This document shows, in pieces, positions 28,743-47,671 of a DNA stretch of 47,671 bases. The translations under genes and the position numbers were made by a program. The notes under the pieces were generated by a model. That model saw nothing but the letters and a program-made list of their open reading frames with translations. It did not search any database and was not told the origin of the DNA. Positions within the stretch are counted from its first letter, which is position 1. Each line of letters begins with the position of its first letter. This DNA is from Chthonomonadaceae bacterium (lineage in GTDB: Bacteria; Armatimonadota; Chthonomonadetes; Chthonomonadales; Chthonomonadaceae), in assembly GCA_035650735.1 (NCBI GenBank), contig DASRGZ010000125.1, positions 1-47,671 of the forward strand. Reading direction: 5' to 3'.

Positions 28743-29636
28743 ATGAAACGCAACTATCGCAGTATTGGCTTTGTGGGGTCTATTATGCTGGCCGTGACGC
28801 TAGCCCTGGTCCTCTCCGGCAGCCTCCGCCACGCCGCCACGTCCTGCCCGCGCTACACCATTGAGGATCTGGGCGAGCTGGGCTCTTCCACAGGTCAGCC
28901 CTTCAGCGGTCCGGTCGTGATGCCCAACCACTTCCCACTGCCCACAGCCAATGGGCTCCCTAAGCGCGACGCCTTCACGCTACAGCGCACCTGGTCGGAT
29001 GCGGATACCGTGCGCGTCATCAGCGCCAATAAGTCCTACGGCCAGGCCGGATGGATACACACCCAGGGGATGGATGCCTGGCACGCCTTCCTCCTGCATA
29101 ACGGTCAGCTCGAAGACCTGGGCACCCTGGGGGGCAACAGCAGCTTTGCCTGCGACCTCAACGCCTACGGCTGGGTGGTCGGCTATTCCCAGACGCCTGA
29201 CCGCAGCCGGCATGCCTTCCTCTTCCAGGGCAGCTTGATGGCCGACCTGGGCACCCTCGGTGGCGTGGATAGCCGCGCCTATGGGGTCAACGATCAGGGC
29301 CAGATTGTCGGGGATGCGGATACCACTCAGGGAGCCAGCCATGCCTTTCTCTATGAACAGGGCCACCTCTCCGACCTGGGCACATTGGGCGGATTGGATA
29401 GCGTGGCCTACAGCCTCAACAACAAAGGCCAGGTGGTCGGGTTTGCCCTGACCCGGCGCGGAGATACGCACGCCTTCCTCTGGCAGCAGGGGACGATGTA
29501 CGACCTCAATCGGCAGATACCGGCAGATTCAGGCTGGGAACTTCAAGAAGCGCTTAAGATTGATGATGCGGGACGTATATGGGGCGAAGGCATGCTCCAT
29601 GACAAGCTGCACCGTTTTCTGCTGATACCCCGCTAA
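28743..29636 (+). CDS. HAF-repeat extracellular protein, copy 1
   Basis: Repeats HAFL....DLGTLGG..S.A..lN..GQVVG; N-terminal hydrophobic segment; AAGGAGG RBS. Confidence 0.92.
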   Translation: MKRNYRSIGFVGSIMLAVTLALVLSGSLRHAATSCPRYTIEDLGELGSSTGQPFSGPVVMPNHFPLPTANGLPKRDAFTLQRTWSDADTVRVISANKSYGQAGWIHTQGMDAWHAFLLHNGQLEDLGTLGGNSSFACDLNAYGWVVGYSQTPDRSRHAFLFQGSLMADLGTLGGVDSRAYGVNDQGQIVGDADTTQGASHAFLYEQGHLSDLGTLGGLDSVAYSLNNKGQVVGFALTRRGDTHAFLWQQGTMYDLNRQIPADSGWELQEALKIDDAGRIWGEGMLHDKLHRFLLIPR

Positions 29637-29680
29637 AAAGCCGGATAAAACCTTCTTTCCGCCTTTCAAACAGCGGAGGT

Positions 29681-29711
29681 GCCCCCAGAGGCAAAGCCTT
29701 TGGGGGTTTTT
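29681..29711 (+). terminator. Intrinsic terminator
   Basis: GCCCCCAGAGGC-AAA-GCCTTTGGGGGT followed by TTTT. Confidence 0.8.
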
Positions 29712-29909
29712 CATGCCCATAAAAAAGCGGCTCGTCCGTAAGCGCATTGTAGCAAGATACAATAAGACATCGTGGCAGGTTATTGGTAAACTATAGAACC
29801 GTTGGCCCATGCTCCCGGCAGCAAGGAGAAGACACGCAGGCTCCAATCGCCGCTAGATAGTCCTTGTGCATTGCCAGGGTGAGTAGAGGCTTAGCTTAAG
29901 GAGGAAGGT

Positions 29910-30716
29910 TTGAAAAGCAATAATAGCAGTATTAGCTTTGTGGGATCGATCCTGTTAGCCGCGGCGCTGACTCTGTTCCGCTCGGGCAGCCTGCGCCATG
30001 CTACCCCACTTGGCCCGCTCTACACCATCGAGGATATGGGCCAAACGAGCTCCCGCTTAAGCCTCTCGGAGCAACGCGATGGCAATTCCGTGCGCGTCAT
30101 CAGCGCCGACAAGCCCTACGGTGAGGTAGGATGGATGCGCGCTCAGGGCAGGAACACCTCGCACGCCTTCCTCCTGCATAACGGTCAGCTCGAAGACCTG
30201 GGCACGCTGGGGGGCAACAGCAGCTATGCCTGGGACCTCAACGCCTACGGCTGGGTGGTCGGTTATTCCCAGACGCCTGACCGCAGCCGGCATGCCTTCC
30301 TTTTCCAGGGCAGCTTGATGGCCGACCTGGGCACCCTCGGCGGTGAGGATAGCCGCGCCTATGGGGTCAACGACCAGGGCCAAATCGTAGGCTATGCCGA
30401 TACCGACCGGGGGGAAAGGCACGCTTTCCTCTATGACCAGGGCCGCCTTTCCGACCTGGGCACCTTAGGCGGATTGGATAGCGTGGCTTACAGCATCAAC
30501 AACAAAGGCCAGGTTGTCGGGTCTGCCCTGCCCTTGCACGCGGATAGACACGCCGTCCTCTGGCAGCAAGGGGCAATGTATGACCTCAACCGGCAGATAC
30601 CGTCCGACCTGGGATGGGAGCTGGTGGAGGTATCAAGGATCGATGATCAGGGCCGCATCTGGGGAAATGGCCTGCTCCGTGGCCTATGGCGCCGTTTTGT
30701 TCTAACGCCCCGTTGA
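29910..30716 (+). CDS. HAF-repeat extracellular protein, copy 2
   Basis: Paralogue of copy 1; TTG start after AAGGAGG. Confidence 0.9.
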
Positions 30717-32296: not shown

Positions 32297-32393
32297 CCTC
32301 AGGTTCCTGCTTCATCGCGTTTCAACGGGCAGCCTGCCGTCCTCTCCATGCCGCAATGCCGTCCTCAGGTTCCTGCTTCATCGCGTTTCAACG
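32297..32393. repeat. 31-bp perfect direct repeat x2 with 35-bp spacer
   Basis: CCTCAGGTTCCTGCTTCATCGCGTTTCAACG at 32297-32327 and 32363-32393. Confidence 0.9.
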
Positions 32394-32464
32394 CCTGGAC
32401 CTTCCGTTTTCCCGCACTCGACGCCGGGCAATAAATTACCCGTCTGTGTGGCCTAGCGGCCAAC

Positions 32465-32512
32465 CGTCCTGGCGGACGCTGTCTCTAACCAGAGGTTCCG
32501 TCCGCCAGGACG
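32465..32512. repeat. Long hairpin downstream of the His-rich gene
   Basis: CGTCCTGGCGGACG / CGTCCGCCAGGACG 14-bp perfect stem, extendable by CCCGTCT/AGACGGG (about 32439-32541). Confidence 0.7.
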
Positions 32513-32610
32513 CCTGGCGGCGCAGCCGCCCTCTAGACGGGTATTTTCAATGCCCGGCACGAGAGGGCTTCCCGTGTTAGCGCGCTCTTTACACCAATAG
32601 GCAGGCGAGC

Positions 32611-43042: not shown

Positions 43043-43834
43043 CTAGACACAGCGTTCCGTGTTGAACCGAGCTGGCTGCCAGTTCGGCAGGTTGTTAAAG
43101 CGCGGCCAGCGTACCAGGCGCAACTGCGCGAGGCGGGCCAGGAGAATCTTGGTGAGAATGTCCTTTGCCCGAAACCGCAGCGAAGTGTAGCTGCGCGGGC
43201 GGTCCGACGGCAAGCCCTGTTCCGTTCCCAAAAGCGGACGGTAGAGGAAGGTCTTGATCGTGCCCAGTCCCTCGCAGTGCTCCTGGCTTTCCACGCAGTC
43301 CGCCATCGGGTAGGAGCCCAGGTCTCGCTGCGCGGTTTCGGTCAGCAGGATGTACTGGCTCTGGCGGAGCGAGTTCTTGAGCAGCCGGTGCGCCAGGATC
43401 ACATCCACTCCCGAAAGCTCGTCGAAGCGGTCGATCCGATGAAACAGGGCCGTACCGCTGTGGACAATGATCTTCAGACGCAGCCGATCCACGTTCTTGC
43501 AGGCCTCGCAAGGGCAGATATTGGCCTGCTCCAGTTCCCTGCGCCGCGTCTCAAAGGCCCGGGAGAGCCGCAGCAGCATCTCCATCACCTGCCACATCCG
43601 CTGCGCCCGCTCTGATGCGCTGCCCTGCTGGAGAGCATAGAGGAACACCGCGTCTCCTTCCAGCTTTGCCACCTGCAACGGCCTCTTCGCGTGCTGCAAG
43701 ACCGTCTTCATCAGTTGCGAGATGATCACATAGCTATGCGCCAGCGCGTGCCGGTTCGCGGTCATGAACTGTGTGTAGCCGCTGATGTCGCAGAGTATCA
43801 GAAGGACCTCTTTTTCTTGAGAATGCGTGCTCAT
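43043..43834 (-). CDS. DUF2652-type protein (class III nucleotide-cyclase-like fold)
   Basis: LILCDISGYT, KLEGDAVF, CPCEAC..L.LKIIVHSG and GVDVILAHRLLKN motifs. Confidence 0.85.
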   Translation of the reverse strand: MSTHSQEKEVLLILCDISGYTQFMTANRHALAHSYVIISQLMKTVLQHAKRPLQVAKLEGDAVFLYALQQGSASERAQRMWQVMEMLLRLSRAFETRRRELEQANICPCEACKNVDRLRLKIIVHSGTALFHRIDRFDELSGVDVILAHRLLKNSLRQSQYILLTETAQRDLGSYPMADCVESQEHCEGLGTIKTFLYRPLLGTEQGLPSDRPRSYTSLRFRAKDILTKILLARLAQLRLVRWPRFNNLPNWQPARFNTERCV

Positions 43835-45000
43835 CGGCGTGCTGCTTTTCTGCGCGGATTTTCCACCAGCGCGAGGGCATGTCCGTCCTGGTCGCGAACG
43901 AGAAACCCACTCGCAAAGCCCAATTTCTGTTCCGGCAGCGTCGCGGGGCCAGGCGAGATGAAGCTAACGCGGCTATCGAAGAGGCTTCGCGCCGCCCTGC
44001 TGGGGTCGGGAGCGACCAGCTTCGTCTGCCAGTGCCATATATCGTTGGCGCGCGTATCCGAGGGAATCGGTCGTCCATCGTGCGGCGTTAGGTACTCCAA
44101 GAACTCGATGGCCGGACCGGAAGCGAGCCGCAAGCGCGTGATTCGCAGGCGCGCGCCGAAGATGTTGTTGAGATGTTCCTGCTCGACGCCGTAGTTTTCG
44201 CTCTCTCCCGCAACGCGGAACCCCAGCGTGTCGCGATAGAACTTCAGGCTGGCTTCCCTATCGGAGACGACGATAGCGGTATGGTCTATGCCCAGGAACA
44301 GCCGATCCGTTCGATGCCACTTCGGAGCGCCCTTGTCGGGCGGGAACGACAGTATTTCCAGCGTGTGGCCGTCTGGGTCCTTAAAGTAGAACGCCTGGAT
44401 GCCGGCTGCCTTCGTGTTCCAATTGGGTATGCGCTGCGGCCCGGTGGAAGCGTGCTGGACCTTATGCGCGCGCAGCAGCCGGTAAGCGCGATCCATATCG
44501 CTGACAATGATGGCAATGTGCAGGAAAGCGCGGTCGTTGCTGCGCATGTCCGGTGGGATGGGGCGTCCCCTGGGGGCCAGGTATTCCGTCAGCCCTAGGA
44601 ACTCGTCGCCCAGCCGCAGCCGCACAACCCGCATTCGCAGGCCAAAGACGCCCTCCAGATGCTCGTACTCCGCGCCCGCAACCTCCATGTCGGATACCTT
44701 CTCGAAGGGCAGCACTTTGGTATAGAACCCTGCGTCTTCAGTTAGGAGGGAGGCAGGGCGATGGGCGGTCTCGAAGGGCAGCACTTTGGTATAGAACTCC
44801 AGGCCGCGATCCATGTCCGAAACCGTCATCCCGATGGAATCCACCGCTTCCGCAAGGGGCGCGTGGGACGTGGACTGCGGCGCGGGCCAGGCGGAGTTCG
44901 GCGAGGCCAGCAGCAGAAGCGCCAGCAGAATCCAGGGCAGCGCCGCCAGCCAGAGGCGCGTATTTTGCGCGTATTGGTCATAGATACTGCCGTGTCTCAT
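43831..45000 (-). CDS. Exported tandem VOC (glyoxalase-like) protein carrying an in-frame 23-aa duplication/insertion
   Basis: Signal peptide; HIAIIVSD, YFKDPDGH.LE, IDHTAIVVSD and RDQDGH motifs; FYTKVLPFE occurs twice. Confidence 0.9.
   Translation of the reverse strand: MRHGSIYDQYAQNTRLWLAALPWILLALLLLASPNSAWPAPQSTSHAPLAEAVDSIGMTVSDMDRGLEFYTKVLPFETAHRPASLLTEDAGFYTKVLPFEKVSDMEVAGAEYEHLEGVFGLRMRVVRLRLGDEFLGLTEYLAPRGRPIPPDMRSNDRAFLHIAIIVSDMDRAYRLLRAHKVQHASTGPQRIPNWNTKAAGIQAFYFKDPDGHTLEILSFPPDKGAPKWHRTDRLFLGIDHTAIVVSDREASLKFYRDTLGFRVAGESENYGVEQEHLNNIFGARLRITRLRLASGPAIEFLEYLTPHDGRPIPSDTRANDIWHWQTKLVAPDPSRAARSLFDSRVSFISPGPATLPEQKLGFASGFLVRDQDGHALALVENPRRKAARR
44700..44797. repeat. 29-bp perfect direct repeat x2 with 40-bp spacer inside the VOC gene
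   Basis: TCTCGAAGGGCAGCACTTTGGTATAGAAC at 44700-44728 and 44769-44797. Confidence 0.92.
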
Positions 45001-47353: not shown

Positions 47354-47399
47354 CTTTTTAGACGCCGTAGGGCGACTTCGTGCCCTGGTTGCAGCGAAT

Positions 47400-47671
47400 T
47401 TATTCGCCCGCAACCGAATGAGGAAGGACCCTGCCGGCATGGTAGGCGCAGAAGATGCAGCGTTTGTGGTTCTGGTGGTGCAGCTTGGCGCAGCCTACCG
47501 CCGCCGCGCCGTGTCGTCGCCGATAGACCTCTGCCGCCAGGAGCATGCCGAGGGGCGGCGCGGTGAAGTAGACCCAGAGCGCCATCCAGGAGTGCGCGGT
47601 GAACGCAGAAGCAAAGGTTCGGGCCGGGTTCATGCTCATGCCGGACAGGGGCGCCTCGATACTGATGTAGG
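47400..47671 (-). CDS. MIP/aquaporin family channel, 3' part (5' end outside the window)
   Basis: YISIEAPLSGMSMNPARTFASA..WVYFTAPPLG (second NPA box); tail CAKLHHQNHKRCIFC. Confidence 0.9.
   Translation of the reverse strand, partial: YISIEAPLSGMSMNPARTFASAFTAHSWMALWVYFTAPPLGMLLAAEVYRRRHGAAAVGCAKLHHQNHKRCIFCAYHAGRVLPHSVAGE

Follow-up and report, generated by a model that had tools for sequence, protein, structure and literature searches.

A target duplication inside a VOC gene

The window analysed here is contig DASRGZ010000125.1 of assembly GCA_035650735.1 (47,671 nucleotides; C125 in our numbering), which belongs to the genome of a Chthonomonadaceae soil bacterium (6.52 Mb, 63% GC, 97.6% complete), referred to as G000 in this study. 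A gene for a 389-residue protein of the VOC/glyoxalase fold lies at 43831-45000 on the minus strand, and it carries a 23-residue gain between helix alpha1 and strand beta2. The gained segment has a repeat-insert-repeat structure, which we call the focal scar. Read on the minus strand, the leader-side copy of a 29-bp target (44769-44797), coding for a first FYTKVLPFE at the end of alpha1, is followed by a 40-bp insert, the putative spacer (44729-44768), and then by the second copy (44700-44728), coding for a second FYTKVLPFE. The two 29-mers are identical and can be extended on neither side, and the 40 bases in the middle are unrelated to them. The open reading frame remains intact, with FYTKVLPFE at residues 69-77 and 92-100 and TAHRPASLLTEDAG between them. 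A first-pass annotation of the window had described a perfect in-frame duplication around an unrelated insert and had suggested that it arose by off-target acquisition of a CRISPR spacer; the letters and the reading frame bear out the description. As the duplicated unit is VOC coding sequence without ATTGAAAC, the 3' end of the cognate CRISPR repeat, the locus is, judged by its sequence, not a functional CRISPR array.

The focal scar was looked for in Logan contigs of four of the 11 listed sequencing runs (X1, X2, X5 and X7). Contigs of X1, X2 and X5 cross it with no differences and no gaps, and those of X7, which cover a small share, reach part of it; no joint skipping the 69 bp was present among the 15 joints shown (123 others were not shown). 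X1 may be the source sample of the assembly, and X2 and X5 are nearly equal in sequence and depth, so that the independence of the supporting runs is uncertain. A Joint Genome Institute (JGI) contig is identical across 12,937 bp including the focal scar, and bears an additional 30+37 scar at the point where the G000 contigs end. An artefact of this assembly is therefore an improbable origin of the focal scar.

In a genome of the same genus (G001), the site holds a single copy and is shorter by exactly 69 bp. A homologue search returned 120 proteins, one of which was a fragment of the focal protein itself and was set aside; all 119 full homologues lack the 23 residues, in agreement with the single copy that had been expected in orthologues. 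On these comparisons, the insertion is the derived state. The source of the 40-mer was not found in any search: there was no match elsewhere in its own genome within 11 mismatches, none in viral contigs, GTDB genomes, INPHARED phages or plasmids, and a metagenome scan returned the scar itself only. No Rfam family was found in the window.

Scars across the genome and the native CRISPR-Cas locus

Exact and mismatch-tolerant scans of G000 for repeat-insert-repeat structures yielded 154 candidates with periods of 58-80 bp. Twelve of these (CRISPR-type remnants or loci with multi-copy inserts) were removed, leaving 142 loci on 100 contigs: 11 with periods of 58-63 bp, 87 of 64-70 bp (the main class) and 44 of 71-80 bp. 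Such a genome scan had been proposed for finding further cases, and it places the focal scar as one of about 140 and no isolated case. Among unique-unit loci with periods of 45-120 bp, 76 of 158 fell at 64-70 bp and just 19 across 79-120 bp (3 of these 19 not being multiples of 3). When the genome was shuffled in 5-mer blocks, no window passed the scan, and the scars are not due to chance; a few of those with at least three mismatches between copies are probably protein repeats. Many scars have decayed copies with one to three mismatches, and this range from perfect to decayed implies events spread across time. About 9.8 kb of DNA was gained through scars. In 51 exact scars of the main class, the apparent unit measured 29 bp in 9, 30 bp in 23, 31 bp in 11 and 32 bp in 6, which by simple arithmetic points to duplications of mostly 30 bp and some of 29 bp, plus chance extension.

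Scars avoid genes. With genes placed by a rough custom gene caller, 91 of 141 scars were intergenic, 32 lay at gene edges and 18 inside genes, as compared to random expectations of 19%, 7% and 74%, respectively. In 11 in-gene scars, the copies differ at no more than one position; of these scars, 8 shift the frame and 3 are in frame, one of these 3 with a stop. The genes split by scars include those for a zinc dehydrogenase (intact in G001) and for DUF362 and DUF2961 proteins. Besides the focal site, G001 is shorter by exactly 67 bp at one further scar.

These counts bear on the VOC protein, for which an added loop had been proposed. The host gene matches PF00903 (E 8e-24) with paired beta-alpha-beta-beta-beta modules, and the best fold matches of its predicted structure are glyoxalase I and GLOD4. 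In an AlphaFold2 model (70-row alignment), helix 63-73 and strand 100-108 are retained, and the gained residues are modelled as a low-confidence loop (predicted local distance difference test scores below 50 at 78-81 and 85-96). The proposed loop is thus compatible with the predicted structure, although nothing points to a function or to selection. As in-frame scars are not enriched, the loop needs no adaptive account and was most likely tolerated rather than adaptive.

The CRISPR-Cas locus of G000 lies on contig C93 and reads, in order: an 80-repeat array, cas2, a type I-B cas1, a possible ring nuclease, csm4, csm3, csm2, a shortened cas10, cas4, cas3, cas5, cas7 and cas6. The Cas1 scores 431 bits against the cas1_HMARI profile (cut-off 304), and cas2 and cas4 are also present. 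No second cas1 or cas2 was found in G000; the sole cas1 lies in the cas operon. The array has 29-bp repeats, with periods of 65-67 bp in 72 of 79 units, and spacers of 32-41 bp (mode 36-37, mostly 36-38). A comparison of the 29- and 40-bp lengths with this genome's arrays had been suggested as a check: the repeat is equal in length to the focal unit, and 40 bp is inside the spacer range. In six relatives that carry a Cas1 of this clade, the array repeats measure 30 bp.

Several further features of these elements were recorded. The cas locus is a hybrid of type I-B and partial type III-A with a shortened cas10. Its leader-proximal repeat (C93:7692-7725) is preceded by C, giving a 30-mer as in the relatives, and the array still duplicates 29 bp. 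At the trailer end, the array is truncated by a transposase and ATPase pair (C93:337-2500), which we take to be IS21-type. Solitary degenerate type I-B repeats lie away from the array on C3, C19, C89, C121, C152, C162 and C166; these are possibly regulatory or CreTA-like. Short I-E-type arrays occur at C109:6231-6382 and on C19, C42, C126 and C127, and I-E cas genes were not found. The C109 array has inverted-repeat flanks, and one of its spacers matches C91 exactly, with an AAG-type protospacer-adjacent motif (PAM). Searches of G000 for I-E Cas7 or a second RAMP locus found none; the I-E control was positive in only 1 of 14 genomes, making the I-E blank a weak one.

Unusual scars were seen as well. 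At C224:43547-43710, a unique 29/30-bp unit occurs three times around two different spacers, so that both lengths are present at one site; this is a site hit twice, a two-spacer array born of ordinary DNA. At C198:74296-74520 the scars are nested: a unit with a 66-bp period runs directly into a 38-bp duplication that encloses a second insert, after which the first unit starts again. A REP-like family member carrying a duplication of 73-bp period, with one shared insert, occurs at the ends of C62, C63, C147, C171, C187, C194, C195 and C206 and in C40; it apparently spread to many contig ends after insertion. A type III array was considered for this 73-bp repeat and rejected, as it is a REP-like family.

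In the window itself, a second scar of like geometry had been noted at 32297, and it is present as 31+35+31 bp (32297-32393, minus strand) in an intergenic position 47 bp upstream of a PhyH gene. It consists of the leader-side copy (32363-32393), a 35-bp insert (32328-32362) and the other copy (32297-32327), with a motif score of 11.1 on the minus strand (see below). Logan contigs break at this 31-bp scar. The window also contains two tandem paralogous reading frames with 129-bp internal repeats and 90% identity across 300 bp (28743-30716), and multi-copy intergenic REP-like repeats at 32420-32560, 1700-1756 and 47358-47414, one family of which is also found in G001.

Target motif and origin of the inserts

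A motif search that was blind to the native repeat was trained on 50 scars. Its information content was 9.0, compared to 4.4-4.7 in six shifted-site controls, and the preferred bases were a purine at -3 (48 of 50), G at -2 (35), A at 11 (28), A at 12 (32), C at 13 (33) and T at 19 (28). The motif is in register with the 30-nt native repeat and agrees with it at the leader end and at the AAC and the T in mid-repeat. As the search was free to pick strand and offset, these counts are inflated, and tests outside the training set matter more. In 29 held-out scars, the motif gave a z of 8.4, and none of 300 controls scored as high; the native junctions of all six relatives examined scored 7.8-12.6 bits. 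Compared directly with the native repeat, 50 exact scars agreed at 11.0 of 29 positions (8.6 in shifted controls), a value reached by none of 500 controls.

At the focal site, GGA on the minus strand (44798-44800) fits the purine-G-N leader-end motif, with AA at unit positions 11-12. The site scores 5.3 bits on the minus strand when left out of the training, about the median, and -5.1 on the opposite strand, so that the minus strand is the leader-side orientation. The first-pass annotation had drawn on the GTT with which the unit starts on the minus strand; this finds no support, as the native repeat in that sense begins CCTTT/CTTT. The 61-bp class is similar to the I-E repeat (z 3.3), but to the I-B repeat as well (z 3.5).

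Nine of the 142 inserts could be traced, over nearly their full length, to one other place each in the genome, all of them ordinary chromosomal DNA, and 133 are untraced; the traced set leaves out two partial matches and one insert made of a simple repeat. For the seven traced inserts of the main class, CCG is directly upstream of four and CTG of two, and CCG is one base off in the remaining one. The PAM thus stands on six of seven traced siblings, with one of the six calls made on the other strand and with an ambiguous base assigned to the spacer. CYG is expected by chance at 0.10 per insert, or 0.20 with slack, giving P values of 8e-6 (strict) and 4e-4 (lenient). Overlapping spacers in the native array of a relative (G012) have the flanks CCG, CTG, CCG and CAC, three of four being CYG. 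The two traced inserts of the 61-62-bp class have no common PAM. None of the 79 native array spacers traces to its own genome. Of the scans of array spacers for phage matches that might reveal a native PAM, three were blank, and one gave nothing better than 19-mer matches, with 10-13 mismatches along the spacer.

One 43.5-kb chromosomal contig, C15, supplies four of the nine traced self-derived inserts, two of which landed 350 bp apart on C135; C15 is a possible acquisition hotspot. A prophage was considered for C15 and rejected, as its first 20 kb hold chromosomal genes and there is no clear GC-skew switch. At C106:28873, the insert of a scar with a 35-bp unit shares 17 exact bases with the third-newest array spacer, which suggests that the two came from the same invader.

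How the scars may have arisen, and comparison with known systems

The focal scar is a real, derived insertion, most likely made by Cas1-Cas2, and we put the probability that it is a natural off-target Cas1-Cas2 spacer integration at roughly 0.9. This reading is supported by the match in lengths, the empty orthologous sites, the motif in the register of the native junction and the PAM on the traced siblings. In addition, none of the four observations that had been named in advance as speaking against it was made: the contigs carry the duplication, orthologues lack it, the 40-mer has no match to insertion sequence (IS) ends in the genome, and Cas1-Cas2 with compatible lengths is present. In the proposed course of events, the type I-B Cas4, Cas1b and Cas2 encoded on C93 would have trimmed a prespacer beside a C-C/T-G PAM. 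Rather than entering the array, this prespacer would have gone into the VOC gene, at a site like the leader-repeat junction, with purine-G-N preceding the first attack and AA(C) about 10 bp inside the target. A staggered second attack 29 bp away, followed by gap repair, would have duplicated the target, and the event would have persisted because 69 bp without a stop makes a loose extra loop. The same process would have produced the roughly 87 scars of 64-70 bp period.

Several observations weigh against this interpretation. Support for the focal scar comes from assembled contigs, not raw reads; its motif score of 5.3 is middling; its 40-bp insert is in the tail of the spacer range, no array spacer being exactly 40 bp; and no search gave a protospacer for it. 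The present array duplicates 29 bp, as against 30 bp in most scars. The CYG consensus was originally drawn from the same seven inserts, the sole informative overlap in the array of G000 is CGG and not CYG, and the traced spacers are in the canonical orientation in four of seven cases, tied in one and reversed in two. The 61-bp and 71-80-bp classes are without the motif, any motif specific to the latter being slight (10.96 vs 10.2-10.6), and no second cas1 was found to match them. Finally, relatives of the same Cas1 clade are nearly free of scars, so that the type of enzyme alone does not explain the load.

Another origin would be insertion of templated or captured DNA during double-strand-break repair, or the action of a non-Cas integrase, with the CRISPR-like sizes being a coincidence. 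This could cover the 61-bp and 71-80-bp classes, which have no I-B motif and no matching cas1, and 133 of 142 inserts are untraced. However, neither process would be expected to give the narrow length peak, the motif register or the PAM of the 64-70-bp class, and the I-E-type and 37-bp repeat remnants offer possible CRISPR sources for the other two. We consider this origin quite improbable for the focal scar. As the short I-E-type arrays and the 37-bp repeat remnants lack matching cas genes, lost or unassembled systems are likely makers, and the ~61-bp and 71-80-bp classes probably stem from such other CRISPR integrases.

The first-pass annotation had offered as its alternative the remnant of an IS making long target duplications, to which a miniature inverted-repeat transposable element or a casposon-like element may be added. 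The presumed IS21-type genes adjoin the array, REP-like repeats are many in the genome, and one repeat-embedded 73-bp unit is present at many contig ends. Yet no pair among the 142 inserts shares a 14-mer, terminal inverted repeats occur in 1 of 142, the focal 40-mer is without a match, and the traced inserts are chromosomal and have a PAM. Transposon duplications are 4-12 bp and casposon duplications 14-15 bp (PMC4872114; this and the other publications below are cited for the accessible parts of their text), compared to 29 bp here, and the stand-alone Cas1 of a casposon was not seen, the only cas1 found being that of the cas operon. This alternative is largely refuted and retains very little probability. 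Least credible is an assembly or library artefact, with mis-joins around repeats near the k-mer length: the units are near k = 31, the Logan contigs break at the 31-bp scar and the runs, seen as contigs only, may be dependent, but the separate assemblies of three runs and the JGI contig carry the focal scar unchanged, and an artefact would not give decayed copies, gene avoidance (18 of 141 vs 74%), a repeat-like motif or a PAM.

Off-target integration by Cas1-Cas2 still leaves the number of scars to be explained. In 1.78 Mb from 11 relatives, one isolated locus of 64-70 bp period was found outside arrays, compared to about 25 expected at the rate of G000, and the 1.16 Mb taken from genomes with this Cas1 clade held one locus, where about 17 were expected; for the relatives, these stretches are samples of the genomes, and the rate for G000 rests on 94 loci of the same scan, some of which are embedded in repeats. 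In G001 (89% complete), 283 kb held no such locus, and the search for cas1 was blank. The single locus among the relatives, in a genome of another family (G019), is a scar-like 31+35+31 structure near the cas locus (L151:2438-2535); G019 has the best native junction and this one scar in 121 kb.

The Cas1b clade of G000 (C93:8250-9428) and of the loci L010-L018 has an acidic insert of about 60 residues between its two domains, in 10 of 10 aligned. This insert was considered as a cause and rejected, as it occurs in all nine relatives aligned; the G000 Cas1 differs from these at just one otherwise invariant column. Among 46 genomes of the class, HU/IHF (PF00216) was found in a single one, which is unusual for bacteria, and HU lowers off-target integration in vitro in the III-A system of Thermotoga profunda (PMC13769266). 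As this absence is class-wide, it cannot explain an excess in a single genome and is at most permissive. The native junction of G000 has T at -3, where the six relatives have G, and its score of 4.8, that of a median scar, is met by 56,229 genomic sites. This weak junction is the sole G000-specific feature found, in a comparison of one genome with six. A weak junction, high adaptation activity and weak purifying selection are equally open as causes of the excess. A more sweeping scenario, which we regard as unlikely in its entirety, would be that, in a class nearly without HU/IHF, the junction of this lineage lost its -3 purine, so that about 56,000 chromosomal sites now equal it in score and its duplications are of 29 bp in place of 30 bp. 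Cas4-Cas1-Cas2 would thereby have become a standing genome-wide insertional mutagen (gene knock-outs, protein loops, new arrays), and the other size classes would be the work of two further CRISPR integrases.

Such a fixed record allows the target preference and the PAM of an uncharacterised type I-B integrase to be read without experiments. It also presents CRISPR adaptation as a mutagen that shifted the frame of genes, added a loop to a protein in frame and gave rise to a two-spacer array, and it offers a sharp question about fidelity, concerning one leader-end base in a lineage without HU/IHF.

For the type I-E system of E. coli, Nivala, Shipman and Church reportedly described spacer integration at non-canonical sites and neo-CRISPR loci in 2018. 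In the related preprint, off-target integration in E. coli depended on artificial up-regulation, only circumstantial natural cases are given, for two species, and the natural frequency is called unclear (bioRxiv 10.1101/148544). In both E. coli and G000, a chromosomal site is duplicated over the length of a repeat, the insert has the length of a spacer and a locus occasionally grows beyond one spacer. Unlike the E. coli events, those described here are natural and fixed, number about 87 (up to 142), involve a type I-B Cas4-Cas1-Cas2 and have a readable motif and PAM. In the literature searched, which excluded subscription papers and supplements, no natural genome with such a load was found. 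Off-target sites of Pyrococcus furiosus Cas1-Cas2 share repeat features (PMC6698737), as those of G000 do, and absence of the DNABII protein raises off-target integration in T. profunda (PMC13769266). Both of these studies were carried out in vitro; in the class studied here, HU/IHF is nearly absent, but the relatives sampled have almost no scars.

The closest agreement is with the type I-B system of Haloarcula hispanica, in which duplication is governed by AACCC at positions 11-15 and GTGGG at 18-22, and varied spacing in the repeats leads to duplications of 29-33 bp (Wang et al. 2016, PMC4872114). The scars of G000 share the AAC at 11-13, the T of GTGG at 19, the anchoring at the junction side and duplications of 29-33 bp, and differ in an extra purine-G preference at the leader end. 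The Haloarcula rules were obtained with engineered repeats inside an archaeal array, and the present ones come from natural off-target sites in a bacterium. The mechanism is known; what appears to be new is its scale, the subtype and the readable specificity.
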